From a virus (taxonomy: Duplodnaviria > Caudoviricetes): a stretch of DNA of 41,554 nt. Below the pieces are notes generated by a model, which did no database searches, was not told where the DNA came from, and was given only the letters and a program-made list of their open reading frames with translations. Position numbers and translations under genes: made by a program. The stretch's first letter is position 1. Every line of letters begins with the position of its first letter. The DNA lies in the IMG/VR virus record IMGVR_UViG_3300011422_000009, positions 1-41,554 of that record; one strand, 5' to 3'. Of this stretch, positions 2,940 through 37,321 are shown one piece after another.

Positions 2940-2959
2940 CATAAAACAAAACAACAATC

Positions 2960-3020
2960 TGCAAACTAGGTTGCACAAACAAGAAGGTTTGTGCAACATA
3001 GTGTGCAAATCTGTTGCACA
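2960..3020 (+). promoter_or_regulatory. double-hairpin intergenic element, copy 3
   Basis: 21-bp stem TGCAAACTAGGTTGCACAAAC/GTTTGTGCAACATAGTGTGCA with 2 mismatches, then TGTGCAA-atctg-TTGCACA. Confidence 0.75.
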
Positions 3021-3052
3021 TAAAATACCAACACGATCAGAAAGGCACAACA

Positions 3053-3535: not shown

Positions 3536-3541
3536 TCTGGT

Positions 3542-3611
3542 TTGCAAGCAAAGGGTACGGCCCATCATCAGATGGGTGGGCCGTTACCTTTACTTACAAT
3601 CTGGTAAGTAA
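3542..3611 (+). promoter_or_regulatory. double-hairpin intergenic element, copy 4
   Basis: AAAGGGTACGGCCCATC pairs with GGTGGGCCGTTACCTTT, then TTACTTAC-aatctg-GTAAGTAA. Confidence 0.7.
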
Positions 3612-3644
3612 CACACAAAACAAAGTTCAGAAAGGACTTATAAA

Positions 3645-4124: not shown

Positions 4125-4126
4125 GT

Positions 4127-4180
4127 TGCACATAGGCTGCATAAACAAGATTTGTGCAGCTTATTGTGCAGATTGGCACA
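4127..4180 (+). promoter_or_regulatory. double-hairpin intergenic element, copy 5
   Basis: TGCACATAGGCTGCATAAA pairs with TTTGTGCAGCTTATTGTGCA (G-U pairs), then TGTGC-agattg-GCACA. Confidence 0.72.
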
Positions 4181-4219
4181 GCAAGCAAACAAAGCAAAGT
4201 TCAGAAAGGCTTTATACAA

Positions 4220-4495: not shown

Positions 4496-4499
4496 TCAC

Positions 4500-4562
4500 G
4501 CACACGATACGGCATAACCCCCACAATCTGTTGTGCCGTATAGTGTACAGGATTGCTGTACA
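4500..4562 (+). promoter_or_regulatory. double-hairpin intergenic element, copy 6
   Basis: ACACGATACGGCATAAC pairs with GTTGTGCCGTATAGTGT, then TGTACAG-gattg-CTGTACA. Confidence 0.7.
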
Positions 4563-4601
4563 GTAATCGTCCTATGAAATCTCCAGAAAGGGATACATGA
4601 A

Positions 4602-5121: not shown

Positions 5122-5199
5122 ATGTTGCACGTAGAACCAGAATTTGCCATTATCGCAATTGTGTTCTTACTGTGTCTATTGTGGGGCCGTAAGGTTTAG
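5122..5199 (+). CDS. possible 25-aa hydrophobic peptide
   Basis: MLHVEPEFAIIAIVFLLCLLWGRKV with AGAAAG upstream. Fills the gap before the next hairpin element. Confidence 0.4.
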   Translation: MLHVEPEFAIIAIVFLLCLLWGRKV

Positions 5200-5200
5200 G

Positions 5201-5260
5201 CGCAAACTAGATGCTATCACCTGATTAGATGGTAGCATTTAGTGTGCGAATAGACGCACA
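5201..5260 (+). promoter_or_regulatory. double-hairpin intergenic element, copy 7
   Basis: CGCAAACTAGATGCTATCA pairs with TGGTAGCATTTAGTGTGCG, then TGTGCG-aataga-CGCACA. Confidence 0.72.
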
Positions 5261-5297
5261 ATATCTTATTAGCTAGGTTTCAAGAAAGGAACCAAAC

Positions 5298-5801
5298 ATG
5301 AACGCCAACACCACCACGATCAAGTTCCCCCGCTTCAAGAAGGATGGGATCATTGCCAATGCCGTTAAAAACCATGAAGATTATATGGCTCGGCAGAAAG
5401 CACGTTTCACCTTCATCAAGCAAGCGGCACGCATGATCGATGAGAGCTGGTTGCCTGAAGATAGCCGTTTCTACGTAGAAACCTACGGTATGACCATCTA
5501 CATTCCTTGGTCAAAGGCTAATCTTATTAAGGCACGCAAGGCTATCGGAGCTGGCTGGAAGTACGATAGCCAATACCAGAACGATAATGGTACGCTGACC
5601 AAGAATTATCACACATACTTGGAAAGCGAATACATTAGCTTGACTCTGGTAATGGATGCAGAGAAGTTGGTCGAAGGTACTTGCAAGAAGGTCTTAGTGG
5701 AAAGCAAGACCGAGATGGTGCAAGTCACACGGCAGACCTATAAGGTCATCTGCGAAGATGGCACAGAAATGATGGAAGTAGAAACAGAACGCAACGTGTA
5801 G
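5298..5801 (+). CDS. hypothetical protein
   Basis: AGAAAGGA RBS, 167 aa. Confidence 0.8.
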   Translation: MNANTTTIKFPRFKKDGIIANAVKNHEDYMARQKARFTFIKQAARMIDESWLPEDSRFYVETYGMTIYIPWSKANLIKARKAIGAGWKYDSQYQNDNGTLTKNYHTYLESEYISLTLVMDAEKLVEGTCKKVLVESKTEMVQVTRQTYKVICEDGTEMMEVETERNV

Positions 5802-5884
5802 TGCAGAGGACGGCACACCCATGATCTTGTGGGTGGGCCGTAATGCGCCTTCCACTCGGAAGCTGGTTCCAAGTCCAGGCACAT
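5796..5884 (+). ncRNA. twister-like self-cleaving ribozyme (circularly permuted, type-P5-like)
   Basis: GCA-GAG-GA-[P1 CGGC..GCCG]-UAA-UGC-GC-[P3 CUUCC/GGAAG]-[P4 CUGG-UUCCAAGU-CCAG]. Both pseudoknot pairings (GA:UC and GC:GU) are satisfied. Confidence 0.82.
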
Positions 5885-5905
5885 TATTACCCAGAAAGGT
5901 ATAAC

Positions 5906-6160
5906 ATGAAAGAAGAAGAAGGTACGTATCTTCTGCAATTCCAGTTCGATGAGGCAATAGACATGGAAACAGAATGGTTCTACCATCTGCAACATGCGTT
6001 GGTGCGCCTTACGTATCTGAGCCAAATCCACCCCGACTATCTGGTAGCTTGTATCTTATTCCAGGCTAGGGATGGTGCGCTGTTCGATGTGTGTGAATTT
6101 AACATTCGGATAGGCTATGGTTTTGAAACAGATAGGATCCCCTATGCTACGGAATTGTAG
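5906..6160 (+). CDS. hypothetical protein
   Basis: AGAAAGG RBS before ATG 5906. The longer track start overlaps the ribozyme. Confidence 0.7.
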   Translation: MKEEEGTYLLQFQFDEAIDMETEWFYHLQHALVRLTYLSQIHPDYLVACILFQARDGALFDVCEFNIRIGYGFETDRIPYATEL

Positions 6161-6425
6161 TGCAGATACTTTGTACGGCAAAGCAGATGATAGGCTTTCT
6201 CGCATTACGTCTGCCTTACTACATCTAGCGCAAGAAAAGCAAGAAAGCTGGGAAGATTGCGTACTGTGGTCTGCTCCTACAGAGTGCTGGAAGCAGATCG
6301 AAGATACGCATGATCGCAAGAAAAGCCTAGTTCTCTTCTATGTAGGTATGGATGAAACCGAATGGCTTGCTGCCGTAAGAGAACGCACCAGTGAACGATG
6401 GGTCTATTACAACTTACCATTTTAG
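6144..6425 (+). CDS. hypothetical protein
   Basis: AGGA before ATG 6144, short overlap with the upstream gene. Confidence 0.65.
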   Translation: MLRNCSADTLYGKADDRLSRITSALLHLAQEKQESWEDCVLWSAPTECWKQIEDTHDRKKSLVLFYVGMDETEWLAAVRERTSERWVYYNLPF

Positions 6426-6437
6426 GAGATTACGATC

Positions 6438-6719
6438 ATGGCAGAAGTACAGGAAATGGATCAGTGGGAACGGGATGAGTTACGAAAAGCAGCTCGTCAA
6501 GAGTACGAGAATAATATTCTCAAGAATCTACGGGATGCAGTAGCAGATGCCTACGTACCTCTCTTCCCGCCGATGGCCCCGACCAATGTAAGCCCGAAAA
6601 TCGAAAGATTGCTGGCTTACCTTACCTATGCGATCACCTTGCACTTAGATGATCATGAGGATGGTTGGTGGGAAGATGAGGATACCATTCAGGAATTTGA
6701 CACGTTGTTTTTAGGATAA
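6438..6719 (+). CDS. hypothetical acidic protein
   Basis: AGGAG RBS, 93 aa. Confidence 0.75.
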   Translation: MAEVQEMDQWERDELRKAARQEYENNILKNLRDAVADAYVPLFPPMAPTNVSPKIERLLAYLTYAITLHLDDHEDGWWEDEDTIQEFDTLFLG

Positions 6720-6740
6720 TCAAGAAAGGATACGAGAATC

Positions 6741-6878
6741 ATGTTAGTTGTCTATATATCTATATGGTTGATCAGTCGCTTAATCTATGTTGTGCTGATA
6801 GCCAACCAAAGATCTGTTCCAATCCCAGTTCCAAAGAAGAACTATACTCCTGTTTCTAGCCCACGCTGGCCTGAATAG
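6741..6878 (+). CDS. small putative membrane protein (45 aa)
   Basis: AGAAAGGA RBS and hydrophobic N-terminus MLVVYISIWLISRLIYVVLIA. Below the ORF-track size cut-off. Confidence 0.55.
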   Translation: MLVVYISIWLISRLIYVVLIANQRSVPIPVPKKNYTPVSSPRWPE

Positions 6879-6884
6879 GGTAGA

Positions 6885-6980
6885 ATGCAGAGTCCGGCAG
6901 CACATCCTAAAAGATGTGTTTGCCGTAATGCAGGTCTCGTGGTATAATGAGTCTACGGGACAAGGTGACAACTCCTTAAG
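6885..6980 (+). ncRNA. second twister-like ribozyme (type-P5-like)
   Basis: GCA-GAG-UC-[P1 CGGC..GCCG]-UAA-UGC-AG-[P3 GUCUCGUGG/CUACGGGAC]-[P4 AAGG-UGACAACU-CCUU]. Pseudoknots UC:GA and AG:CU covary with the first copy. Confidence 0.82.
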
Positions 6981-7017
6981 AAGCATAGTCTTAGCTAGTT
7001 TCAAGAAAGGAACTAAA

Positions 7018-7338
7018 ATGTTTAATCCCAAAATCCAAAAGTTAATTAAGGATCAAATGGCTGCGGATGATCATCTTCCTGCCTACGCATGGCCTGGAGG
7101 CTATCCATTGTTTTATATGGATGAGGAGAACAATGTTCTCTGCCCCAGATGTGCCTTCAAGGATAAGGATGATGAGTATCGCATCATTACAGATTACGAG
7201 ATTAACTGGGAGGATTACAATCTTCGTTGCGATGAATGCAATGATTTCATCGAATATGCTTACGGCAGCGATGGAGATGAGGATGCAGAGCGGGAACGTC
7301 AGGTCATGTTAAATGATCAGGAGGAAGATGAGGAATGA
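7018..7338 (+). CDS. hypothetical protein with CxxC...CxxC (Zn-binding) motif
   Basis: AGAAAGGA RBS before ATG 7018. Motifs AWPGGYP, CPRC and CDEC, with an acidic tail. Confidence 0.8.
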   Translation: MFNPKIQKLIKDQMAADDHLPAYAWPGGYPLFYMDEENNVLCPRCAFKDKDDEYRIITDYEINWEDYNLRCDECNDFIEYAYGSDGDEDAERERQVMLNDQEEDEE

Positions 7339-7998: not shown

Positions 7999-8001
7999 TT
8001 C

Positions 8002-8053
8002 CACATAGGTTGCATCAGGATCTGGTGCAACTTATTGTGTAGATATGCTACAC
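8002..8053 (+). promoter_or_regulatory. double-hairpin intergenic element, copy 8
   Basis: CACATAGGTTGCATCAG pairs with CTGGTGCAACTTATTGTG, then GTGTAG-atatg-CTACAC. Confidence 0.72.
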
Positions 8054-8092
8054 GATAATCTATTTAGTTGGTTTCAAGAAAGGAACTACATC

Positions 8093-9615: not shown

Positions 9616-10542
9616 ATGAAGCTCATCCGGGATCGCTGGATGCCTATGTTTCAGCTTGCTAGAGAATTGGAACCCAAAGTAGATAAACTCTACAAAGGGG
9701 ATCCAGAATACTCTAAGGCTTTCGTAAAGAAAGCAGAGCAAGGCATGAAAGCGGACTATCGTGCGGCAGAAGCCTTGATGGCAATATCTGAAACTATTGT
9801 GCTGCCATCCAGCATTATGCTGGATTTAGTTCACAATATCGACAGAATCGACACCACAGGATGGATTAAACTGCCGTATCCCTACGTTACCATTCAGTTC
9901 ACCCACCCTATTTTAGAAACTGAGATCATGCTCCATGAGGAAAAGAATGACCTCATGACCAGATTTGGTTTAGAAAATGATACGGTGGAAGGAATCATCC
10001 TTGGTAACGCAGATCAGGATCAACGTCCTTTTCCACCACAGCATGTTTTCAACATGATGAATTGCTGCATACTGTTCAACTCAACAAGTGTGAACAGAGT
10101 AGCGTGGATAGGGACGAGCAGTCCGGCAAGACCTCACTGGCAGAACAGCATGTTCCGTGAAAGTGAGATGCCATACAAATCTAGGGAAAATAAGTACAGG
10201 ATGATCAAGTTATGTTATGCGATTAACCTGTTCTTAAATGCTCCCAACGTCATCGTAGTAAAAGAGAAGCCAGATCCCCACGTTAATGCAAAGCGTGAAC
10301 GTAAGGGGAAGGCTATCCTGCCGGAATACCATACGGTGACAATTCAGAAGATACAAGTGAAATACGCAGAACCTAGCGGGAAAACGGGAACGGCCCACAC
10401 ACGTATGTATCCTGTGCGTGGTCACTTCCGTAAACTTGCACAGTTTGAAGACCCAATCTGGGTGCATAATCACTTCCGTGGACTCAAACATGGCGAAGAA
10501 AGCCTCGTCAAAGAGATCTACAGAGTTGCGCCCAAGAAGTAG
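9616..10542 (+). CDS. hypothetical protein with C-terminal VRGHxR...W...H.RG motif
   Basis: Start moved to ATG 9616, since the upstream part of the track ORF is the non-coding island. The basic C-terminal His/Arg motif is recalled from phage proteins of unknown function. Confidence 0.8.
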   Translation: MKLIRDRWMPMFQLARELEPKVDKLYKGDPEYSKAFVKKAEQGMKADYRAAEALMAISETIVLPSSIMLDLVHNIDRIDTTGWIKLPYPYVTIQFTHPILETEIMLHEEKNDLMTRFGLENDTVEGIILGNADQDQRPFPPQHVFNMMNCCILFNSTSVNRVAWIGTSSPARPHWQNSMFRESEMPYKSRENKYRMIKLCYAINLFLNAPNVIVVKEKPDPHVNAKRERKGKAILPEYHTVTIQKIQVKYAEPSGKTGTAHTRMYPVRGHFRKLAQFEDPIWVHNHFRGLKHGEESLVKEIYRVAPKK

Positions 10543-10570
10543 GTAATAGCGGATTGGTCGGTACGGAAAT

Positions 10571-10599
10571 TTGCCTTGCCGACCCATTCGTGTTACAAT
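10571..10599 (+). promoter_or_regulatory. sigma70-type promoter
   Basis: TTGCCT, 17-bp spacer, TACAAT, with extended -10 TG. Confidence 0.65.
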
Positions 10600-10650
10600 A
10601 AATCGTGTAGTTATTGCAGTCCCCACACAAACCAAGAAAGGTTTTACATC

Positions 10651-11688
10651 ATGGAAGACCAAGTTCAGCCCAGCATCGCCAGTCAAATCGAGGCCCTCGT
10701 TGCCGCTAAGAATGCGGAAGGTGAGTACGTCACCGTCCGTACCGTATCCAAGCAACTGGGAATCAAGCAAGCCGATGTACGGCCAAACCTTCCGGCAGGA
10801 GCTACGCTTCTTCCCTCCAAGAATGGGACAATCGGCGAAAGCCGTATTCAATTGTCAACTGGAGAGGAGGAAGAGTATGTAGACGCAGATACTCTGCCCT
10901 CTACTGACTCCAGCAACGAAGAGGAAGTCGTTCAGTTAATGCTACCAAGAAAGACGAGGCGTGTTAAAGTGGAAACTGAACCGAAGGTACAAGAGCTCGA
11001 TGAGCAGGGCAACCCCATTCCGGAAGCGGAAAAGGTAATCTGCACCATCTGCGGAAATCCCGTTCGCAAGAATACCATTGTGCGACGTGGGATTTGTCCT
11101 CTCTGCTTCCGTCAGCTTGCCAAGAATGTAGGCATGAATGCTACGAAGTTGGAAAGCCTTACGGATGAGGAGTTTGACATCGTAACTGGTGAAGAGCTGA
11201 GCCGTCGTCGCACGTTGGAAGAATACAAAGCAGGACGTATTCTTACCGATGAGCAGTTCAAGGCGATGGAAGGCACGATTATCCCCGTTAAGGAAGTCTT
11301 TGCTGCCGCTAAAGCTGCGGGATACGGGCCTGGTCGTGTCGCTCAAGCAATGGGTGGCGATCGCTTCCGGCACGAGCCTCTGGGTGGTTTTGACTCGGTG
11401 TGGACGCCCTACTTCGTAGGCGCACGCAAGGGATGGTACTTCAACATCGATATTCTCAATCACTTCGATGACCTTGCCAAGCCTGTGAAGAAAAAGAAAG
11501 CCAAGAGCGCAGGAACCCGTTCGGCAGGAGCAGGTCGTAAGGGAGCTCGTGGTGCAGCCATGACGCAAGTCGTGGAGAGTGATGAGGAAGCCACGCAAAT
11601 GATGGATTCCACCAATCCAGAAGAGGATGAGTTTTACGAAGAAGAGCAGGATGAGGATTACATCGACGAAGTAGAAGAGCAGGTTTAA
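10651..11688 (+). CDS. putative DNA-binding protein (HTH-like N-terminus, Zn finger, basic patch, acidic tail)
   Basis: AGAAAGG RBS before ATG 10651. Features VRTVSKQLGIKQADV, CTICG..CPLC, KKKKAK and a D/E-rich C-terminus. Confidence 0.75.
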   Translation: MEDQVQPSIASQIEALVAAKNAEGEYVTVRTVSKQLGIKQADVRPNLPAGATLLPSKNGTIGESRIQLSTGEEEEYVDADTLPSTDSSNEEEVVQLMLPRKTRRVKVETEPKVQELDEQGNPIPEAEKVICTICGNPVRKNTIVRRGICPLCFRQLAKNVGMNATKLESLTDEEFDIVTGEELSRRRTLEEYKAGRILTDEQFKAMEGTIIPVKEVFAAAKAAGYGPGRVAQAMGGDRFRHEPLGGFDSVWTPYFVGARKGWYFNIDILNHFDDLAKPVKKKKAKSAGTRSAGAGRKGARGAAMTQVVESDEEATQMMDSTNPEEDEFYEEEQDEDYIDEVEEQV

Positions 11689-11704
11689 TCTTCGCACTAA
11701 ACTG

Positions 11705-11738
11705 GAATCCCTGGAGCAATCCAGGGATTTCTTTATTT
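11705..11738 (+). terminator. intrinsic terminator
   Basis: GAATCCCTGGA-GCAA-TCCAGGGATTT followed by CTTTATTT. Confidence 0.8.
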
Positions 11739-11807
11739 GTAGGGCAAATTGCCCATCTTAACTTTCTTGACCAGAGCAAGTCGTAAAACTGCTCAGGAGA
11801 ATCTACC

Positions 11808-12032
11808 ATGAATTGCAATTTTGACATCCTGATCAACCAGCTTGAGAAGCGTGCTGCCGAGTCCCGAGCGCAGATTGGCAAAACCCGCACTAAGTTGGAA
11901 AGTCATGAGCTGAAGGGCGAAGTCTATGCCATCAACGAGGTGATCTACATGGTCAAGGAATTTGCCAAAGCACAGGAGAACAGTAATGGATCCGCAGATC
12001 AGGTGGAACCTGTGGATGCTGCTGCATCTTAG
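11808..12032 (+). CDS. hypothetical helical protein
   Basis: AGGAG RBS, 74 aa. Confidence 0.7.
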   Translation: MNCNFDILINQLEKRAAESRAQIGKTRTKLESHELKGEVYAINEVIYMVKEFAKAQENSNGSADQVEPVDAAAS

Positions 12033-12087
12033 TCTTCTAGTCGGGTTGGCCGTAATCGTTCTTTTGAAGCTATGGAGTGGATCATGA
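11986..12087 (+). CDS. possible 33-aa membrane peptide
   Basis: AGGAG RBS. MDPQIRWNLWMLLHLSLLVGLAVIVLLKLWSGS, ATGA-coupled to the next ORF. Confidence 0.5.
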   Translation: MDPQIRWNLWMLLHLSLLVGLAVIVLLKLWSGS

Positions 12088-12251
12088 ACAAAGAAGAGCA
12101 GAAGAAACTGCTAGAGGAACTGGAAAAGCGTAAAGCTGATATTCTGGCAGAGCAGATCAACGAAACTTTCGCTTACAAGAAAGGCTTGAACACAGGAGCT
12201 ATCCTTGGAATCAATGATGCCATTAAATTGATCAAGGAAGCAACTAAGTAA
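12084..12251 (+). CDS. hypothetical 55-aa protein (resembles 11808-12032)
   Basis: GGAG RBS. MNKEEQKKLLEELEKRKADILAEQ...GINDAIKLIKEATK. Confidence 0.6.
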   Translation: MNKEEQKKLLEELEKRKADILAEQINETFAYKKGLNTGAILGINDAIKLIKEATK

Positions 12252-12264
12252 AGTCCGGCCCCAC

Positions 12265-12295
12265 ATCCCCAGGAGCAATCCTGGGGATTTTTTTT
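12265..12295 (+). terminator. intrinsic terminator at the convergent junction of early and late operons
   Basis: ATCCCCAGGA-GCAA-TCCTGGGGAT followed by a T run. Confidence 0.88.
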
Positions 12296-12299
12296 GATC

Positions 12300-12497
12300 T
12301 TATCCTATTAGAATGAATCCTGGGGTACTGATAGGAAAGTCGATAAGACCTAGAAGGCTCAGAAGCCATAAGATCAGAACCAAGACCACAATCCCCAATG
12401 ATATCAGACGCCAGGGTGGGGGAAATCCACGAGAGAGATACTCGATTCCCGTCACCAATAAGATTCCGATAATGATGTAAATAATCCAGTTCCCCAT
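12300..12497 (-). CDS. small two-TM membrane protein (holin-like candidate)
   Basis: Two hydrophobic helices, last gene of the late operon. Confidence 0.65.
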   Translation of the reverse strand: MGNWIIYIIIGILLVTGIEYLSRGFPPPWRLISLGIVVLVLILWLLSLLGLIDFPISTPGFILIG

Positions 12498-12593
12498 AGC
12501 AGATTTCCCCTATCAGATCAGCAACTTCACAACTTCAGATCTTGAGATCTTGACCATTCAGACGAATCCGTAAAGCAGATTTTGATGTTGAGA

Positions 12594-12980
12594 TCACGGT
12601 GGAGGTCCTTCCTCTTCCTGAGCTTTCCCTTGCGGTGGTGCAGATGTAGGAGCCACCAAGACCTCAGGTTCTACAGGCCAGATGTTTGTGAGAAGTGGAA
12701 ACCATTTGGTCACAAAAGTTTGGATTGCGCCAGCGGCAGAAGCTGGATTCTCAGCCCAGGGATCAAACTTCACCGTCCAATCATAATCTGCTATGATGGT
12801 CTGAGGAAAGAAGAAAGTCTCTGGCTGCTTGATGACACGAGACATCAGTTCCTTATTAGGATCTTCTGCCGTAAGGCTTTCTGCCGCATCCAATCCTTGC
12901 TTCTTTACTTCCGCATCTACTTGATTGCGAAATTCTTCTGAGTTGGAAAAGGCTTTCTGTTGCAAACTATTGATGGGCAT
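12594..12980 (-). CDS. hypothetical protein
   Basis: 128 aa, TAATG-coupled to the upstream gene. Confidence 0.7.
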   Translation of the reverse strand: MPINSLQQKAFSNSEEFRNQVDAEVKKQGLDAAESLTAEDPNKELMSRVIKQPETFFFPQTIIADYDWTVKFDPWAENPASAAGAIQTFVTKWFPLLTNIWPVEPEVLVAPTSAPPQGKAQEEEGPPP

Positions 12981-13291
12981 TAGTTCCCCCCGATACCAAT
13001 AGAGCGTGCCGTAGCCGGATCAGCTTCATGGATAAGACCGTTGAGCATCATGAGCGCACCCGTAGTACGTTGGATTTGCTCTTCTACTTGCTTGAGCCTT
13101 TCCTGGATAGCCTCACGGTCAGCCTTGATGCCATTAAGATCAGATAGTAGTTCTTTACGCTTTTCCACGAACGCATCAATATCCATAGTTGCTGTCTTCT
13201 GTGCCGTACTTGCTGTTTGTTCCACGATCATATCCCCTGCGTTCCTCTCCGAGTGATTCTGATTGTTGCGGATTGTGGCTTCAGCTTCCAT
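12980..13291 (-). CDS. hypothetical coiled-coil protein (possible fibre chaperone)
   Basis: AAGGAG RBS, heptad pattern, directly downstream of the fibre gene. Confidence 0.7.
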   Translation of the reverse strand: MEAEATIRNNQNHSERNAGDMIVEQTASTAQKTATMDIDAFVEKRKELLSDLNGIKADREAIQERLKQVEEQIQRTTGALMMLNGLIHEADPATARSIGIGGN

Positions 13292-13311
13292 TGTAATTCT
13301 CCTTGCGATAG

Positions 13312-16300
13312 TTAAATAGTGTAGATAAAGTAACCAGAAATAAACGTGTTATTGGAGAAACTAGCATTAGTTACTTGTGACATAGATGCTGCACCCGCTG
13401 CCGGAGCAGCGAAGAAGCGTGCGGAATTGCTTCCTGCTATGCCACGTAGAACCATTGATGAGAAGGTAGTTACACTAAGATTAAGATAATTTACTGATCC
13501 CCCAACTGTATTGTCTGGTACAACGAAAGGGAAACTAGCTAACTCAGCAGCACCAGATGATAGTGACCCTTTGTTCATCAAGGATACTTCATACATAATA
13601 ACAACAAGATTACCTATACGTATCCAAGAACCCGACCTAGATTGATAAGTTACTCCGGCAGCACTATTAGCGAATCGTACATCTGGAGTATAGACTCCAC
13701 TCTCAAAGTAGGTAAGAGTGCTTTGTCCGAAATTGATACCTGCGCTGGCAGTTATAAGACCAGTTGCTCTAAGAGTACCTGTAACTTCTAGCTTGTACGC
13801 AGGAGCAATATTTCCAATACCGACGTTTCCGGCAGCAAGGATAGTTAAGCGATCAAGTGCATTTGTACGTAAGCTAAGATCATGATTGCTCCATGATCCT
13901 ATATAGTTGTTGCCGTTACTATGGGCGAACATACCCATTTCTTGCCCAAGTGAGTTTTTAAGATGGATACTGGCAACACTAACATTTGGAGAAATCTGTA
14001 TACCACCTGTATAGAAACTAACTGCTCCTACAGTTCCTGGCCCCACATGAAGTAATGCTCCTGGAGCCGTATTGTTGATCCCCATATAACCAGTAGTCTT
14101 TATGGTGGCTCCTGTTACTGAGGAAAGATCTGTAGAGGGGGAGATGGCGAAAGCATCAGCCAATGAACCGTCAATTCCTATTGTCCAGTTGGTCGTCTGT
14201 TGTGTAAATTGTAGACGTGCATCCCCTGCTCCTGCTTGCTGTATCTTCAAACCAACGGCAGAGATAGCCGTAGAATTATCATAGATATGCAAACTATGAT
14301 CAGGGTTGGTTGTGCCGATGCCGATGTCTCCCGTTGATTCTATTCTCATCCTCTCGACGTTACTCGTGCCAAAAATAAGATCATGAGCATTGACAGTACG
14401 GATGACAAGACGAGCAGCATTAGCAGCGAGCGAGACGTCACCATTGGTTAACGGCCCCGACGTTCCCCACCCGCTACCCATCATACCGAATACACCCGAA
14501 GTCCCTGCCACACCACGTACCGCCACTTGCGCCAACGCTCCTGCTCCCGTCGAAAGATTCTCCATCATCAACGTAGTTGAAGTCGCCTGATCTTTCTTGA
14601 TATGGACATAGTAAGCAGGAGCAGCAATTCCGAAGCCAAGATCTCCTGCCGCCGTTATTCTCATCTCCTCTACATTGTTGGTAGCGAAGATCATGTCATT
14701 AGCACCAATGGTGCGGAGTACCAACCGTGTAGAACCACCTGTGATATAAGCATCTCCACTGGTCATCGGCCCTGTTACGCCGTAGCCGCTACCGAGAACA
14801 CCCATTGTAGCAGATGCAGCACCACTACGAGCAGAGAGTGAAGCGACGGCCCCTGCTGCTGTGGATGGATTCTCAGAAGTAATATTGGTTACTGCTCCTT
14901 GGGATTTAGAAACGTGTAGCAGATAGATAGGAGTATCCGTACCGATACCAACTTCACCCGTTTCTACAATCCTCATCCATTCAGTACCGCCATTGCTATT
15001 TGTATATCGCAAACCGCCACCCTGCAAGCCACGAATTTGAGCTAAGGCAGCGGGAGTCGTCCCTTTATAAAAGATGAGATAGGGTTCCACCCCTACGGCA
15101 TCACTTGTGCGTGAAATGCGAATACCGGCGGCTGCACCTTCAACATGAAGCAGAGCTCCAGGACTTATCGTGCCGATGCCGACGTTACCATCGTTATGGA
15201 CACGCATAGCCTCGACACCATCGATGTAGGAGATGACATGACTACCAGAAAGATTCAATGGATAGTAGAGCAAATTGTTATCGTTGTAGGAGTTTAGAGT
15301 AGTCGAAGTAGCACTCACGCTCCAGTCAGAGCGCAAGTTAGGATGCGTCCCACGTCCTAATCTTATAGTGCTGACTGAGCCACCCCGAAATTCAGCGACA
15401 GCAGTAGAAGGGATAATCGTAGTTGTACCTACACCAAGTTGATGTGCTATGTAAGTAAGATCATCTCGTATGAAGGCAGCAGTTTCGGATCTTGTGGTTG
15501 CTACGTTGCCGCTTCCGAAGTAAGCTCCCGTAGAATCTAACCAAATATTGGAAGCTACTGTGGTCGTAGAGTTGATTCCGGCAAGTCTAACGGCCCCACG
15601 AGTATACGAATCATGGGATAAGCCGTAGCTAAAGATCTCTGCAACGGAATAAGCAAGACCACCTACCGTCTTCTTGTCTAGCCCAACTGTTCCACGCTTT
15701 TTAGAGGGGAAGGTTGTGATGCCATCCCCCATTTCTTCATACCAACCAATAGAATTGTATTCTGCTGAACCGAATTTCATACTAATTCCACGTACTTTAT
15801 CAATTGTAAAGATTGTATTTTGTGATTGATAAAGTCGGAAATCTACATTCCATAACTTTATGCCGTTCTTCACCCCTCCGTTGGCTACGCTCCCTGTCAC
15901 CATTGCAATCCCACTCAAACCATCAGCGGGTGACTTGGTAAGATCATCTGCGGCAGCAAAGCCAAAGCCATCCGAGAGATCACCCCATCCTGCCAAACTT
16001 CCCATGCTGACCACAGGAACGGTATCATTCCAAAGTGCAGTAGCGGAACGAGAGTAAACGGTGATAGTAGGGCCAATCTTGCCATGCAAGGTAGTAAGAC
16101 TAGATAGATCTATATAGCCATCACCGACGTTCTTACCAAGACTTACAATAGCATCCCCAGATTGCCATGCGGTCGTAGGCCCACCATCTACATTACGAGT
16201 TACAGACCAGCGATAGCCATCTGTAATGACCGTATGAGTTGTAGATGTAATCTTTAGAGCTTCTTGTTGCGGCAGCGAAGTAGTAGGATTTAAGCCTTCC

Positions 16301-27723: not shown

Positions 27724-28128
27724 TTATTCTTCCTCTCCTAATGTTACAAGACCCAACCTTGCGATTCTCTTCAAAGATTGCAATATTCTTGGTCCCCAGA
27801 AATCTTTTGCGGGAACTAGAATAGAGTAACGTCCTTGATGTGCTAATTCCAACCAGATAGTATAGTGTAAAGATGGATCGTGCTGTAGCACAATCGTACC
27901 AATGGGACCGCTAGTAGGATCTACCCAAGCCTTCAAACCTTGTCTGGCTTTTGTAGTTCTGTCCTTCCAAGGAGCATTATCCTTTGCCCATTGCTCCATT
28001 TCTGCTGCTTGCCGTATCGCTACATTCCTACCTGACTGGAAAGTTGCTTGCAAGAATAGTTCTGTGGTCTCCCCCATTCTGGTAAGGGAAGCTGGATTCT
28101 TTACGTATACCCCTGATTGATTCGCCAT
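27724..28128 (-). CDS. HK97 gp10-like neck/tail-completion protein
   Basis: Motifs AKDNAPWKDRT..ARQGL and Y.IWLELAH.GRY.IL.PA. Confidence 0.8.
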   Translation of the reverse strand: MANQSGVYVKNPASLTRMGETTELFLQATFQSGRNVAIRQAAEMEQWAKDNAPWKDRTTKARQGLKAWVDPTSGPIGTIVLQHDPSLHYTIWLELAHQGRYSILVPAKDFWGPRILQSLKRIARLGLVTLGEEE

Positions 28129-29176
28129 CTAATACTCCCTCATCGTGCAATAACTCTATCATTCCGGCGGCAGCATCCTGCCAAGTCTGATTGCCAGATA
28201 ACCACGCTCTTGCCTTCTTGCCCCTGGTCAAAGCCTGATCAGGTTCATTGTAGCAATAGAGCATTGCATCTGCTAATCGTTGGATATCGGCTATCATCCA
28301 TTCCCCGCAAGATCTACTTCCTCTCCTGCCAGGAGGGATTGGTGTCATCTTACCACCACCCACGATGTAAGCCCACTTATCCAAATGACCGTCGTCCATG
28401 CCGGAGAACTTCTGCGTAAGAACTTCCAATCCCATCATAGCTGCTTCACGGTGCGGCATCCCCCATCCCTCACATCTCGAGGGAATGGCGAAGCAATCAC
28501 CTTTGTTAAAGAAGTCAGACATATCATCATAGATGTTACGCTCAACAGATATCCTAGGATCCATGTCTTTTGCCCTAGCAATAAGATCCACTATACGATT
28601 GCTCTTGGGCAAGCTCTTGATGATTAAACGTACATCCTTTATCCCATCTGTCTTGCTGCCGAAGGCTTTGTAGAAGGCATAATATACTTCCTGCCATCCT
28701 TTACGATCCCCTCTGTCAGACAGAGCTAGGAACGTATAAGGTCGTGAATTATCTACCGTCCTCATAGGAAATTCTTCAGGATCTGTTCCTAACGGCACAA
28801 CCTTAATAGGAATCTTAACACCACTATCTTCATATACATCCTTACAAAACTGCGACGGCACAAGAATAAGCTCTACGCCACATTTATGGATTGCCTTGAC
28901 TAAGGCTTTGGATATTTGACTTCCCTCACACATCGTATAGAGCCAGTGTTTCCCTTTAACTTTAGGAACATTAAAAGGTTGATGACAGGTGATCGAAAGA
29001 TTATTCCAATCTACCCGCATCTGATCTAGCATCCATTTAGGTTTCTCAGTATCCTCTACGGTTATCGGCAGCACATCCAATCCAAACTCTTGCATCTGCT
29101 TCACTAAGCGTGCCGAGAATCTACCGTAGCCATCATAGTGTGCGTAATAACTAATCCAGTTAATCGTCATGCCCAT
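28028..29176 (-). CDS. GT-B fold glycosyltransferase (GT4-like)
   Basis: Motifs DGYGR, VPSQFCKDVY, RKGWQE and D.FAIPSRCEGWGMPHREAAMMG (ExxG-x3-E). Confidence 0.9.
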   Translation of the reverse strand: MGMTINWISYYAHYDGYGRFSARLVKQMQEFGLDVLPITVEDTEKPKWMLDQMRVDWNNLSITCHQPFNVPKVKGKHWLYTMCEGSQISKALVKAIHKCGVELILVPSQFCKDVYEDSGVKIPIKVVPLGTDPEEFPMRTVDNSRPYTFLALSDRGDRKGWQEVYYAFYKAFGSKTDGIKDVRLIIKSLPKSNRIVDLIARAKDMDPRISVERNIYDDMSDFFNKGDCFAIPSRCEGWGMPHREAAMMGLEVLTQKFSGMDDGHLDKWAYIVGGGKMTPIPPGRRGSRSCGEWMIADIQRLADAMLYCYNEPDQALTRGKKARAWLSGNQTWQDAAAGMIELLHDEGVLDGESIRGIRKESSFPYQNGGDHRTILASNFPVR

Positions 29177-29658
29177 CGCAACTTTCGTGTGATGTAATCT
29201 GAACGCATCATGGAAGCTCCGTTCAAACTACCTGGATCAGTAAGAAGACCTGTTGTATACATCCAGTTGATTGGATAGTAATCTGGAAACTTATGATTCT
29301 GTAACAAAGTAAATAGAAAGTTATCCATTACTTCGATAAGATCATAACCTACCCATTGATACATCCAAAATTCTACTACCCTGGTTAATCCAATTACACG
29401 TTCTTCAGGATCCATGATAGCAGGATTAGGGATTGGTGAACGGGCTTTGATAATAAGGATCGGCAGCAAATAGCCATCAACATCATAAGCTGCGGGTGTA
29501 GAATCACGGTGTATACCTTGATGCCCTAATGAGCTAAAGGCGTAGATACCACCAGTAGCGATAGCGACTAGCGCAGCATCACCTTGCAGATAGTTTAAGA
29601 ACATACCCTCAATGGTAATGGGTGGAGCTATGATATTAGGAGTTGGTATTGCGCTCAT
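29167..29658 (-). CDS. tail terminator-like protein
   Basis: Start at MSAIPT. L..DAALVAIATGGIY pattern and syntenic position. Confidence 0.6.
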   Translation of the reverse strand: MSAIPTPNIIAPPITIEGMFLNYLQGDAALVAIATGGIYAFSSLGHQGIHRDSTPAAYDVDGYLLPILIIKARSPIPNPAIMDPEERVIGLTRVVEFWMYQWVGYDLIEVMDNFLFTLLQNHKFPDYYPINWMYTTGLLTDPGSLNGASMMRSDYITRKLRWA

Positions 29659-29809
29659 TATCCCCATCCAGCATAGCTTGTACAAAAGCAATAAGATCCT
29701 TGATATACTTATCCGTAACTACAAAGCCATAATCCCGCTCTATCTTTTCACGGATAAGATCTATATCCTTACTCTCCACTAAGATCTCTAGCTTCTGCCG
29801 TTTCGCCAT
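29636..29809 (-). CDS. small hypothetical protein
   Basis: Start MAKRQK is TAATG-coupled to the upstream stop. Confidence 0.55.
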   Translation of the reverse strand: MAKRQKLEILVESKDIDLIREKIERDYGFVVTDKYIKDLIAFVQAMLDGDNERNTNS

Positions 29810-30192
29810 TATCCAGTAGCTTCCCAAACACCTTGAATCTCACCTCTGGTCGTAATAACATCTACACACTTGTACTCATCACCTTCATATACAAACACAT
29901 AACCTTCCTTCATATCAGTATTTGGTAATGTAGGATGGTTCTTAATGCCGTATATAATGACCTTGCGTACAGGTGCGCTTCCTGCTGTGCTTTCTCCAGG
30001 TGTTGCCGTGTTGTCACTCTCAATCCTTACGGTTTGCGAAGCGAGTCTTGTACCATTGGGAGTACGGAATACTGCCTGAGATGGTCTTGCGGAGATCCTC
30101 CGCAATGCCTCTGCCGCTTTCATCCCAGTATCGATCTCGTTCGATCTCGTAGTTTTGGATAGCTTCGAAATCCAGGTCGAGAGATCTACCAT
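29809..30192 (-). CDS. head closure / stopper-like protein
   Basis: Beta-rich C-terminus (DMKEGYVFVYEGDEYKCVDV), located after the adaptor. Confidence 0.6.
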   Translation of the reverse strand: MVDLSTWISKLSKTTRSNEIDTGMKAAEALRRISARPSQAVFRTPNGTRLASQTVRIESDNTATPGESTAGSAPVRKVIIYGIKNHPTLPNTDMKEGYVFVYEGDEYKCVDVITTRGEIQGVWEATG

Positions 30193-30569
30193 ACATAGCC
30201 TCTTGGATATTCTTTAACTCTAGGAGGGTTCTGCATAGGCTTCCCGGATCTGACCGCTCCCGCTTCGGCGGAGACGGCGTCCTCAAGCAAGTTCTCCCAT
30301 CTACGCAGTTCACGCACGAGATGATCGTATCTTTGGGATGCTTTCTCGGTTGTGTTGTTCTGCGTATAATCTACTTCATTAGCCGCTTGCATCACCATGC
30401 GCCGCAACGTTATCACGCGAGTGCTAATCAAGATAGAAGTAGGATCACCAAACCTCTCCCCTGCTTCTACGAAGATAGCATCTATGGTTGCATCAGATAG
30501 CGAGAGAACGTCATCCGGCGCAAAGCCTACATCCATACGAAGCCGTTGCTGCTCTAGTGCTGTAGCCAT
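30186..30569 (-). CDS. head-tail adaptor
   Basis: First gene after the capsid gene, helical, LRMDVG...LSDATID pattern. Confidence 0.65.
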   Translation of the reverse strand: MATALEQQRLRMDVGFAPDDVLSLSDATIDAIFVEAGERFGDPTSILISTRVITLRRMVMQAANEVDYTQNNTTEKASQRYDHLVRELRRWENLLEDAVSAEAGAVRSGKPMQNPPRVKEYPRGYVW

Positions 30570-30577
30570 ATGTCCTC

Positions 30578-31588
30578 TTAGACAGGCCAGGTAATCTCTT
30601 CAACGGAACGCAGCGGATTGGCATAGATCCCCAACCACACATCCCATACGATTTGATCCATAATGAAGCGGCTCACATCAGCGTTACCTTGTGCTGATTC
30701 TAGCGGTTGCTTCACCAGAGAAACAAAGTCATCCGAGCGATACGTGGTGCTGATGAGGTAAGATTTGCCAAGCGTCACCCCAGGATAGGTAACTGTCTTC
30801 TTACCACGAGTACCAGACCAGCCACTATACCCGATGACCGCCCCGATCTGTGAGGAAGCCGATGAATCCAGCGCAAAGCCTTCCTGCGGTACACGATTCA
30901 ACATACGTTGGATCATGAACATCTGTGCAGGATGACACAAGAGTACATACGGGCCTGGTCGTGGATTCACGGTGTCAGCTTGTGCCGCCACAATTGCGCT
31001 TTCCAAAGTAAGGAACCAATCTTCAGTCGTCGTAACACCTGTCGTCACGGCAGCAGATTGGTTGGCAGCAAGATACGTATAGTTCAGGATTGGCTGCAAG
31101 TGCATGTGATTGAGCAGCGCATTGTGCGCTTCCCCAACAGCACGCTCGATGCGAGCAATCTGCCAAAGCTGATTGAACATCATCAGCTTCTTGCTATACT
31201 CTAGCCCAACGCCGAACTGACGTTGTGAAACAGATACTTCCGCTGTGGTGATGTGTCCAAACTTAACTTCACCACCTTCGAAGACTTCCTCGAATACGAA
31301 GCCACCTGGCCCCCAATTCTTAAGATTAAGGGTTTCCGGCAGCGAACTATCTACGATGATGTCATAGATTGGTTCGTATACTGTAGGAACACGAGTACGG
31401 CCAGCATTAACTTCGTAGGTAATGCGGGTGTACCAGTCGGCAGCAAAATCATCTGAGCCAATGAACTCATAAACTGTCTGTCCATTGACACGCACTTCCT
31501 TGAGGCTTTTGCCGAGATCAAAGCCCTTCTCAAATTGATAATACGGTAGCTCCTTGCGAGCATTAGCCCCGTTGTAGATTACGCCCAT
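30578..31588 (-). CDS. major capsid protein
   Basis: 336 aa, strong RBS, downstream of the scaffold and cement genes. EEVFEGGEVKFG-type HK97-fold segment. Confidence 0.85.
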   Translation of the reverse strand: MGVIYNGANARKELPYYQFEKGFDLGKSLKEVRVNGQTVYEFIGSDDFAADWYTRITYEVNAGRTRVPTVYEPIYDIIVDSSLPETLNLKNWGPGGFVFEEVFEGGEVKFGHITTAEVSVSQRQFGVGLEYSKKLMMFNQLWQIARIERAVGEAHNALLNHMHLQPILNYTYLAANQSAAVTTGVTTTEDWFLTLESAIVAAQADTVNPRPGPYVLLCHPAQMFMIQRMLNRVPQEGFALDSSASSQIGAVIGYSGWSGTRGKKTVTYPGVTLGKSYLISTTYRSDDFVSLVKQPLESAQGNADVSRFIMDQIVWDVWLGIYANPLRSVEEITWPV

Positions 31589-31628
31589 TTCTTCCTCTCC
31601 TATAAAACTATTGTGAATGAGTTGCGAA

Positions 31629-32009
31629 CTACGAAGCTAATGAGTTGGCAGCGAGCAATCTACCAATCACAACATTGTTGGCGTCTTTGGCTTCCATCGC
31701 CTTGAAGAACGCCACGATCCCTGCTCCTGGAGCAAGAACATACGCTGCATCCTGCGGAGTGTGACCAGTCACCGAAGCCAGTGTAAGATACACGATGGTT
31801 CCCTTCGGTACGGCCAGCGCAGCAGGAACAGTAATCTGATAGGCACGATCATCAATAGCAATGGCAATAGTTTCACCGATTGCCCCTGCACTTTCAGCGA
31901 TACCTACCCATCCTTGTGCGACTACAACTTGCCCCTTAGCGACCGCAGCCGTAAGAGTGACATTGACAGCCTTGCCATCATTGTCAAAGTATGAAAGTAA
32001 TCCGGACAT
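31629..32009 (-). CDS. capsid cement/decoration protein (DUF2190-like)
   Basis: DGKAVNVT..AAVAKGQVVVA.G.VGIA...GAIGE pattern, located between scaffold and capsid. Confidence 0.75.
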   Translation of the reverse strand: MSGLLSYFDNDGKAVNVTLTAAVAKGQVVVAQGWVGIAESAGAIGETIAIAIDDRAYQITVPAALAVPKGTIVYLTLASVTGHTPQDAAYVLAPGAGIVAFFKAMEAKDANNVVIGRLLAANSLAS

Positions 32010-32044
32010 TTTTCTTCTCTCCCTGTATCTATTGAACTACCGTT

Positions 32045-33187
32045 CTAGTTGCTTGCCGCATTCTGTGAGGGTGGAAGAACAAACCATTTGCCCTTCATCT
32101 TCGGGTCTGTTCCTGCCGTAGTCCCACTTTGGTTCTGAATAGGTGTGGTCTGGTTTGGCCCCATGCTCTCTTGCAATGCCAGATCAAGAGCTTTCTTCAC
32201 TGAAGGCTTTTCCAAGACTTCAGCGTAAGCCTTCTCTGCATCTGCCACTGTGAGCGGATTCTTGGCTTCCACCATGTCGATGACCATTTCCCGCACAGCC
32301 TCAATCTTGATTGCCTTGTCGCCCGTAGTAGCCATCTCAGTAATACGGGATGATACCGCTGCTTTCTCACGAGCAGCGTCCTTTGCCTGGATGCTTTTTA
32401 CCGCATCCAAGATGTTCCCGTCTGTCAAGCCAAGAGCTTCCTTGATTTCCTTAGAGTACTCTTGGATGATAGCGGCACGAACTGATTCCGGCAGCACACT
32501 AGCATCTGCTGCTGTCATCTCCAACATGGCTTGCTTCTTTTCTTCTTCTGTCACTTTCTTACTCTCCTTGATTGGTCTAACAACAATGATGCCACTTTGT
32601 GTAGCCATCTCTTGTGTTAGCAACGGTACGGCAGACAGATCCGATATTCCTGCTCTATCAGCGGGTGCAATATCAATCTGATTAAGCACCAACGTAGAGG
32701 CTATCATCTTGTAAGCCCCCAACTGCTCACTCCAGACGCCATCACCTCTAGCGTCTATACTGGTAGCAATCTTCTTCTGAGTTGCACGATACCTCTGCAA
32801 CCTGTTACGGCTATCACCCGAAGGCACATAGCCCTTTCCTATAAGATATTCCTTGACTCGCATTGTACCAATCCAATGCACAGCTTCGGCAGGGAAAGCA
32901 AAAGCACGATCACTTTCAGAAAGATGCCCCATCAATCCTATGGGCTTGTTATCACGAACTTGCTTTTCCAATTCGGTAATGAAGGCTTCATCGTAGAACC
33001 TTTGGTTCCCTGATTTAGCATTTGCTTTACCGATTGGTAATGTGACGAAGATAGGTTTATCTTCTCCGCCTGTAAGTTCCCTGAGGTCAATGTCCCTGAA
33101 AATAGGCACTTCAGGAAATGCACCTGTGAACTCCGAGATGAGCAAAGTATCATGAAAACTTCCCTTGAGCTCTTCTCCATCTTCCAT
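32045..33187 (-). CDS. prohead protease / scaffold fusion
   Basis: N-terminal SGNQRFY...MGH...TSI...ID protease-like domain and a helical A/E/K-rich C-terminal scaffold. Confidence 0.75.
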   Translation of the reverse strand: MEDGEELKGSFHDTLLISEFTGAFPEVPIFRDIDLRELTGGEDKPIFVTLPIGKANAKSGNQRFYDEAFITELEKQVRDNKPIGLMGHLSESDRAFAFPAEAVHWIGTMRVKEYLIGKGYVPSGDSRNRLQRYRATQKKIATSIDARGDGVWSEQLGAYKMIASTLVLNQIDIAPADRAGISDLSAVPLLTQEMATQSGIIVVRPIKESKKVTEEEKKQAMLEMTAADASVLPESVRAAIIQEYSKEIKEALGLTDGNILDAVKSIQAKDAAREKAAVSSRITEMATTGDKAIKIEAVREMVIDMVEAKNPLTVADAEKAYAEVLEKPSVKKALDLALQESMGPNQTTPIQNQSGTTAGTDPKMKGKWFVLPPSQNAASN

Positions 33188-37292: not shown

Positions 37293-37321
37293 TTGCAGCC
37301 TAGCGGCGGCTGTGCTATACT
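37293..37321 (+). promoter_or_regulatory. sigma70-type promoter for the replication operon
   Basis: TTGCAG, 17-bp spacer, TATACT, with extended -10 TG. Confidence 0.7.

Follow-up and report, generated by a model that had tools for sequence, protein, structure and literature searches.

A type-P5 twister ribozyme with a conserved promoter-like motif inside it in a tailed phage and its relatives

Introduction

The closest described counterpart of the element reported here is the type-P5 twister ribozyme (Rfam RF02684), with which it shares the order of strands, the U^AA cleavage site, the general-base G, stems P2 and P4, the AA of loop L4 and both pseudoknots. It differs from that family in its long P1, its 28-nt P3, its T1 pseudoknot (GUC:GAC), its T2 pseudoknot (AG:CU as against a consensus of GC:GC) and in a promoter motif embedded within it. 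Twister architecture is laid out in passages of PMC6154101. In the portion of PMC11662667 (McKinley et al.) on which we draw, approximately 94% of the natural twisters tested were active, a figure that refers to type-P1 forms; P1, P2 and P4 were tolerant there, and the pseudoknots, L1 and the two A residues after the cut were sensitive.

According to passages of PMC6765202, it is an open question what purpose self-cleaving ribozymes serve in the genomes of phages and bacteria; a role of phage ribozymes in mRNA processing is suggested there and left unresolved. Hammerhead ribozymes flank genes in prophages, where they are clustered, and passages of PMC3088659 propose that they process transcripts into operon-length or shorter mRNAs and demonstrate their cleavage in vitro and in E. 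coli. As in the phage described here, several ribozymes bracket single genes or short blocks in those prophages. The ribozyme class is a different one, however, and the promoter-related passages of PMC3088659 mention no ribozyme with a promoter inside it. Segmentation by phage ribozymes was thus proposed earlier (2011; PMC3088659 and PMC6765202, in the parts considered here) and is not a new idea.

Cleavage in a leader that resets the 5' end of the downstream message is also described for the glmS ribozyme in passages of PMC6765202. In contrast to the phage element, glmS is ligand-gated. Synthetic ribozyme insulators, e.g., RiboJ, are placed downstream of a promoter, cut the promoter's own transcript and reset its 5' end. 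In the element studied here the promoter instead lies inside the ribozyme, and only read-through RNA could cut. The element is a twister variant that is missed by Rfam and that likely doubles as a promoter.

Results

The window, as we call the whole 41,554-nt stretch of DNA that was analysed, is a fragment of a tailed dsDNA phage. Its terminase, portal, capsid and tail genes are encoded on the minus strand, with a GT4-type glycosyltransferase gene at 28028-29176 (minus strand) inside this virion gene block, and helicase and Sak4/SSB-like genes occupy the right end. On the plus strand, the first 12.3 kb hold a run of small unknown genes and DUF932, for which the layout suggests the label 'early'. 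Close to the end of this run, the segment 12247-12295 resembles the start of P1 of the second twister and precedes a terminator-like hairpin that ends the plus-strand region; it also occurs in another contig (L059). GA and TC dinucleotides are nearly absent from positions 1-2160, even within ORFs: GA occurs at 0.5 and TC at 0.0 per kb, and the values elsewhere are 45-80 and 37-69 per kb. The stretch may be the first to be injected and may avoid motifs recognized by restriction or other defence systems. The DNA runs with the phage are freshwater sediment and groundwater metagenomes, 2 of 24 containing at least half of its sequence words.

Two twisters lie in the early run, both on the plus strand: copy 1 at 5803..5878 and copy 2, the subject of this study, at 6887..6977. 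Together they bracket a segment of four ORFs (5842-6926, 1085 nt). The ORF upstream of copy 2 (6741..6878, plus strand) encodes 45 amino acids with a hydrophobic N-terminus, and its stop codon is located 8 nt 5' of the ribozyme. The downstream ORF (7018..7338, plus strand; 106 amino acids, weak PHROG hits) is the first gene of a block that reaches DUF932, and its ribosome-binding site was assigned to 7003..7010 (plus strand) from sequence and position. No terminator-like site was found on the plus strand from 5260 to 7089.

Copy 2 was recognized by a descriptor match, by parsing of its strands and by covariation in relatives. Its strands follow the order of a type-P5 twister, i.e., P2', GAG, T1 strand, P1, U^AA, P2, T2, P3, P4 and L4. 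According to the RF02684 alignment, transferred via copy 1, the 5' part at 6887..6894 consists of P2' (GCA, 6887-89), the general-base G6890, A6891 and the T1 strand GUC (6892-94). A 12-bp P1 hairpin with one bulge is predicted at 6895..6925 and is followed by the cleavage site at 6926..6928, with the cut predicted, at the consensus position, between U6926 and the general-acid A6927, ahead of A6928. The segment 6929..6933 provides P2 (UGC, 6929-31) and the T2 strand AG (6932-33), which pairs with CU at 6972-73. P3 is a 28-nt stem-loop (6934..6961) whose upper stem and loop contain an extended -10 box. The 3' part at 6962..6977 is formed by P4 (6962-65 with 6974-77) enclosing L4 (6966-73), which reads U, T1 GAC, AA and T2 CU, with GAC at 6967-69 pairing with GUC at 6892-94.

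Stems P1, P2 and P4 and the L4 form N-NNC-AA-NN are all present. Copy 2 is open at the P5 position, its ends lying, as in RF02684, at P2' and just past P4; inspection of the relatives by eye showed no conservation of a true P5 stem between the flanks. The folding z-score is -3.0, and P1-P4, the nested stems, form with pair probabilities of 0.94-1.0 in an ensemble computed for 6880-6985. The value for P4 drops to 0.43 once the ribosome-binding site is included in the fold, because P4 can pair with that site. A conserved switch based on this pairing was considered and rejected, since the letters of P4 differ in 3/5 copy-2 orthologs.

Residue numbers of the twister core were taken from passages of PMC9901934 and PMC7026644. 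Mapped in this way, A1 corresponds to 6927 (general acid), A2 to 6928, G39 to 6890 (general base), the A22-A40 pair to 6970-6891 and U18-A23 to 6966-6971, and all of the mapped catalytic and tertiary residues are present in copy 2. None of the types of harmful defect named in the consulted parts of PMC11662667 occurs in it. Judged by its sequence, copy 2 is a genuine type-P5 twister, ordinary as a ribozyme, and we predict with high confidence that it is active. Just after P4, at 6982-6990, the motif AGCAYAGT is invariant in 5/5 copy-2 orthologs and resembles the linkers of the double hairpins described below.

The descriptor, a twister pattern that left the pseudoknot letters free, returned two loci in the window, namely copy 1 and copy 2, both on the plus strand, and 8 hits in 150 dinucleotide-shuffled controls. 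With P1 set to at least 5 bp there was no hit in the 150 shuffles. Rfam gave no hit anywhere in the window at gathering score. At E<=10, copy 1 matched RF02684 at 36.9 bits, just below the cut-off of 37.6, which is a database threshold and not a structural feature, and two of its orthologs exceed this cut-off with 47.9 and 47.4 bits. Copy 2 is unmatched at E<=10 and does not reach the RF02684 gathering score, and its other four orthologs have no match to RF02684 at E<=0.5. The likely reasons are that a long P3 hardly fits a model of 58 positions and that this model expects the consensus pseudoknot letters. P5 twisters in which P3 is long and the pseudoknots are swapped thus escape Rfam.

The first-pass annotation of this DNA had assigned one architecture to both copies, with T1 read as UC:GA in copy 2 versus GA:UC in copy 1, T2 as AG:CU versus GC:GU, and P3 and P4 differing in sequence yet still pairing. 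Our parse of the sequence agrees on each of these points. The cut that it placed at 6926/6927 coincides with the consensus position, and the residues concerned are invariant in all ten twister copies of the family. It had further regarded the changes between the two copies as strong support for function; the conclusion that covariation supports a ribozyme stands, but comparison across genomes supports it far more strongly than the comparison of two copies.

Pattern and protein scans yielded four related phage contigs (L002, L003, L028/L057 and L061), each with both twisters at the same two places. The metagenome scan covered 9 of 64 parts and gave one relative, and the viral scans gave the same three relatives. 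No relative came from a protein scan of bacterial genomes, and INPHARED phages contained no DNA match and only terminases of ~25% identity. The family set accordingly comprises ten twister copies from five genomes, copy 1 and copy 2 from each.

In these ten copies, the U^AA site (U6926 A6927 A6928) and the general-base GAG (6890-92, on the opposite L1 strand) are each invariant (10/10). The variable T1 pairs hold in 20/20 cells (shuffle mean 8.8; reached by 0 of 20000 shuffles), the T2 pairs in 20/20 (mean 12.1; 1 of 20000) and the P4 pairs in 30/30 (mean 22.8; 5 of 20000). For the five copy-2 rows alone, the core positions are invariant at 16/16, and 0 of 500 shuffles reach any measure of the covariation count. 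The five sequences are related, three of them being ~80% identical, so that these shuffle P values overstate independence. T1 occurs in the family as GUC:GAC, GUU:AAC, GGA:UCC, GUG:CAC and GAG:CUC, and T2 as AG:CU, UC:GG, CC:GG, GC:GC, GC:GU, AC:GU and UC:GA. Pairing exceptions are confined to one P2 mismatch (L002, copy 1) and to proximal P1 pairs lost in L061 copy 2. P3 appears only 60% paired in the MAFFT alignment because three rows are out of register; folded one by one, 5/5 copy-2 orthologs have it. Contigs from 4 runs show one substitution and one 2-base gap at copy 1.

Within 5842-5892, the new 5' end that cleavage of copy 1 would create can pair with the strand just 3' of P4 in predicted folds of 5/5 orthologs, a pairing that in these models possibly releases the product or shields the end. 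The corresponding end of copy 2 pairs with the downstream strand in one of five predicted folds and is unpaired in the other four.

Similar pseudoknots were also found outside the family. Of 33 loci retrieved by a pattern search, 8 are credible twisters with T1 GUC:GAC, 5 of these coming from four unrelated phages, and a wider core set contains five T1 types among 20 credible cores out of 176 loci. Phage twisters ordinarily vary in their pseudoknot letters. At the second T2 pair, the window and L002 have G-C, as against C-G in the other 8/10 copies; the long-P3 pattern, run on 57/64 parts, fixed a G after the AA of L4 and is blind to the rarity of such a flipped T2.

The unrelated phage P5 twisters (G004, G005, L006, L011 and further cores) resemble copy 2 in lying between a stop codon and a ribosome-binding site, number up to 6 per genome and vary in their T1 and T2 letters. 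Two unrelated complete phages contain 6 and 5 P5 twister matches within ~4 kb each (G004 28997-33184 and G005 9919-14036). A further contig (L083, 135-480) has, in two consecutive intergenic gaps, a hammerhead-like motif, recognized by eye, and then a P5 twister, each followed by the same ribosome-binding sequence.

A sigma-70-type promoter-like site at 6920..6948 (plus strand) was detected within copy 2 by a consensus scan and by its conservation in 5/5 orthologs. It consists of a -35 element TTGCCG (6920-25) within P1, a 17-nt spacer, TG at 6940-41 and a -10 element TATAAT (6943-48) at the top of P3, with 10/12 matches plus TG to the consensus of a sigma-70/sigma-A extended -10 promoter. From the spacing, transcription is predicted to start near A6955, about 7 nt past the -10 box. 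A loose promoter scan of the region gave 20 matches with 19.7 expected, no better than chance, so the case for a promoter rests on conservation.

The motif TTGCCG-17-TGG-TAYAAT is present in 5/5 copy-2 orthologs and in 0/5 copy-1 twisters. In the copy-2 orthologs, 13/14 promoter positions are invariant compared with 13/61 of the other non-core positions, and the extended -10 is invariant at 7/8 positions versus 3/20 for the remainder of P3. Insertions and deletions occur in P1 and P3 on either side of the spacer and never inside it. L061 has lost two proximal P1 pairs and has retained TTGCCG; the equivalent hexamer of copy 1 is free to covary and takes 4 forms in five sequences. A strain allele, found in contigs of two runs when 4 runs were aligned, has three changes in the P3 stem that leave the pairs intact and turn TATAAT into TACAAT. 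At copy 2, this allele is identical to that of L002, and TATAAT/TACAAT is the sole change across all copy-2 promoter motifs. L003 and L028 have a longer P3, in which some of the TG-extended -10 is paired. A hairpin of the ACGGC...GCCGT type recurs in the double hairpins, and the conservation of the -35 could therefore be inherited in part.

In its strict form, the motif occurs twice in the 41.5 kb, in copy 2 and before ORF 10651. The latter site (10571-10599) is found in 4/4 genomes whose sequence extends that far, again with the T/C swap, and its -35, like the one in the copy-2 ribozyme, belongs to the 3' arm of a hairpin. A third site, with TATACT, is located at 37293-37321 before the helicase operon. 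The pattern widened after this site had been seen gives three sites in the window, all of them sense and intergenic, with a shuffle mean of 0.16. By the criterion chosen, 0/19 credible cores from unrelated phage twisters carry the promoter motif. A fixed-register pattern retrieved 18 viral loci, 3 from this family and 15 without a twister, and 54 loci in genomes with no credible twister among them; one descriptor hit of 140 nt (L210) was dropped as noise. On these comparisons, the overlap of promoter and ribozyme looks specific to this phage family, and we consider it probable that the promoter inside copy 2 is functional. In the literature on ribozymes and promoters, of which the coverage is incomplete, we found no report of such an overlap.

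Further gaps of the early run contain double hairpins (2566-2645, 2950-3025, 3540-3612, 4125-4185, 4496-4570, 5197-5265 and 8000-8060), in which two abutting helices lie between a stop codon and a ribosome-binding site. They covary across the relatives and have no notable match in Rfam; in a set of 14, chosen by eye among ~25, 16/20 pairs have changes in both partners. As sigma-70 promoters they were rejected: some contain TAYAAT, with no consistent -35 spacing by eye. The first-pass annotation had treated ribozymes and double hairpins as interchangeable, but no swap at a syntenic slot was found in the five genomes. The slot after the ORF-5298 gene and the copy-2 slot are each occupied by a twister in 5/5 genomes, and the slots before ORF 5298 and before DUF932 by double hairpins, again in 5/5 each. 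Of the 14 gene clusters shared by two or more genomes (element types classed by eye), the ORF-5906 family alone is found behind both types: it follows twisters in some genomes and, at a non-syntenic place, a double hairpin in another. With 1/14 and 2/15 mismatches, the arms of P1 in copy 1 nearly match the first hairpin of an L057 double hairpin; they also resemble the double hairpin at 3552-3590 of the window. Parts thus seem to be shared, and whole elements were not seen to swap.

Discussion

We propose that copy 2 combines a twister with a conserved promoter, so that read-through RNA cuts between U6926 and A6927 and host RNA polymerase also starts near A6955; we give this reading a probability of roughly 60%. 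Early read-through RNA from upstream would fold the twister and cut at 6926/6927, leaving the upstream four-gene message with P1 as a 3'-terminal hairpin and the downstream message with a 5'-OH end 91 nt before the ATG at 7018. The internal promoter would give RNA with a triphosphate end ~28 nt further downstream than the cut end. Since RNA started at A6955 lacks the 5' half of the ribozyme and the cut site, it cannot cut. Both routes would provide the block from 7018 to DUF932 with nearly the same leader, independent of whichever gene precedes the block, and the element would thereby be a self-insulating promoter cassette that needs no terminator. At copy 2, the downstream block is kept and the upstream gene is of three kinds in the five genomes; copy 1 stays with its upstream gene and is followed by four kinds of gene. 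This fits a copy 2 that serves a downstream start and a copy 1 that serves an upstream end.

The cutting of a long early transcript into units by ribozymes is plausible. The fate of the 5'-OH product, used or destroyed, would depend on host nucleases, for which glmS is a precedent (passages of PMC6765202). RNase J has a role in degradation after glmS cleavage. If a host 5' exonuclease destroyed the 5'-OH product, the ribozyme would be a substitute for a terminator and the block would be expressed only from the internal promoter, a scenario we rate as unlikely. It would agree with the degradation that follows glmS cleavage in passages of PMC6765202, with a new 5' end that is paired in copy 1 and unpaired in copy 2 in most predicted folds, and with an internal promoter that is most useful where read-through is lost. 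On the other hand, the P3 and P4 hairpins begin 7 nt from the new end, and many promoter-less twisters of unrelated phages directly precede a ribosome-binding site, which makes translation of their 3' products probable. The 5842-6926 segment, which would have 5'-OH and cyclic-phosphate ends, could in principle be circularised; we found nothing that indicates it.

Could copy 2 be an ordinary intergenic twister, its promoter-like match being a by-product of descent or the mark of a protein-binding RNA loop? That only five related sequences are known, that loose promoter matches occur at chance level and that TTGCCG-like hairpin arms are found in other elements would all be in keeping with this. 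The retention of the exact 17-nt spacing with TATAAT/TACAAT as the sole change, a -35 that outlasts the loss of its pairing partner in L061 and the likeness to the phage's other conserved promoter-like sites argue against it, and we hold it to be quite improbable. The converse, a slow or dead ribozyme relic kept only as promoter DNA, we regard as very unlikely indeed. The failure of Rfam on 5/5 copy-2 orthologs, the flipped T2 pair and the capacity of P4 to pair with the ribosome-binding site might suggest such a relic, but T1, T2, P3 and P4 show compensating changes that a promoter would not need, and most natural twisters, at least the type-P1 forms tested in the cited parts of PMC11662667, are active. 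For the double hairpins, cut RNase III sites in T7 early RNA offer an analogy. That they and the twisters are interchangeable cutting devices of one segmentation system appears improbable to us: both types lie between stop codon and ribosome-binding site, the double hairpins covary, one of them has a first hairpin that nearly matches P1 of copy 1 and the ORF-5906 family stands behind either type, yet no syntenic slot swaps in the five genomes, the cleavage of double hairpins is putative and copy 2 has a promoter that is absent in this form from them.

In a broader reading, which we put forward tentatively and with more doubt than belief, copy 2 is a natural self-insulating promoter whose ~90 nt are selected for catalysis as RNA and for promoter function as DNA, and it is one member of a modular set of intergenic cassettes. 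Besides the twister with a promoter, this kit would contain a plain twister and a covarying double hairpin, so far uncatalogued, which would share the P1 module of the twister and itself be a processing site. With an element like copy 2, the fate and use of a ribozyme-made 5'-OH message would be directly testable, as single-base changes in the catalytic G or A on the one hand and in the -10 box on the other would switch its two inputs off separately. If the broader reading is true, the kit lets this phage family shuffle its early genes while the message ends of each block stay fixed.
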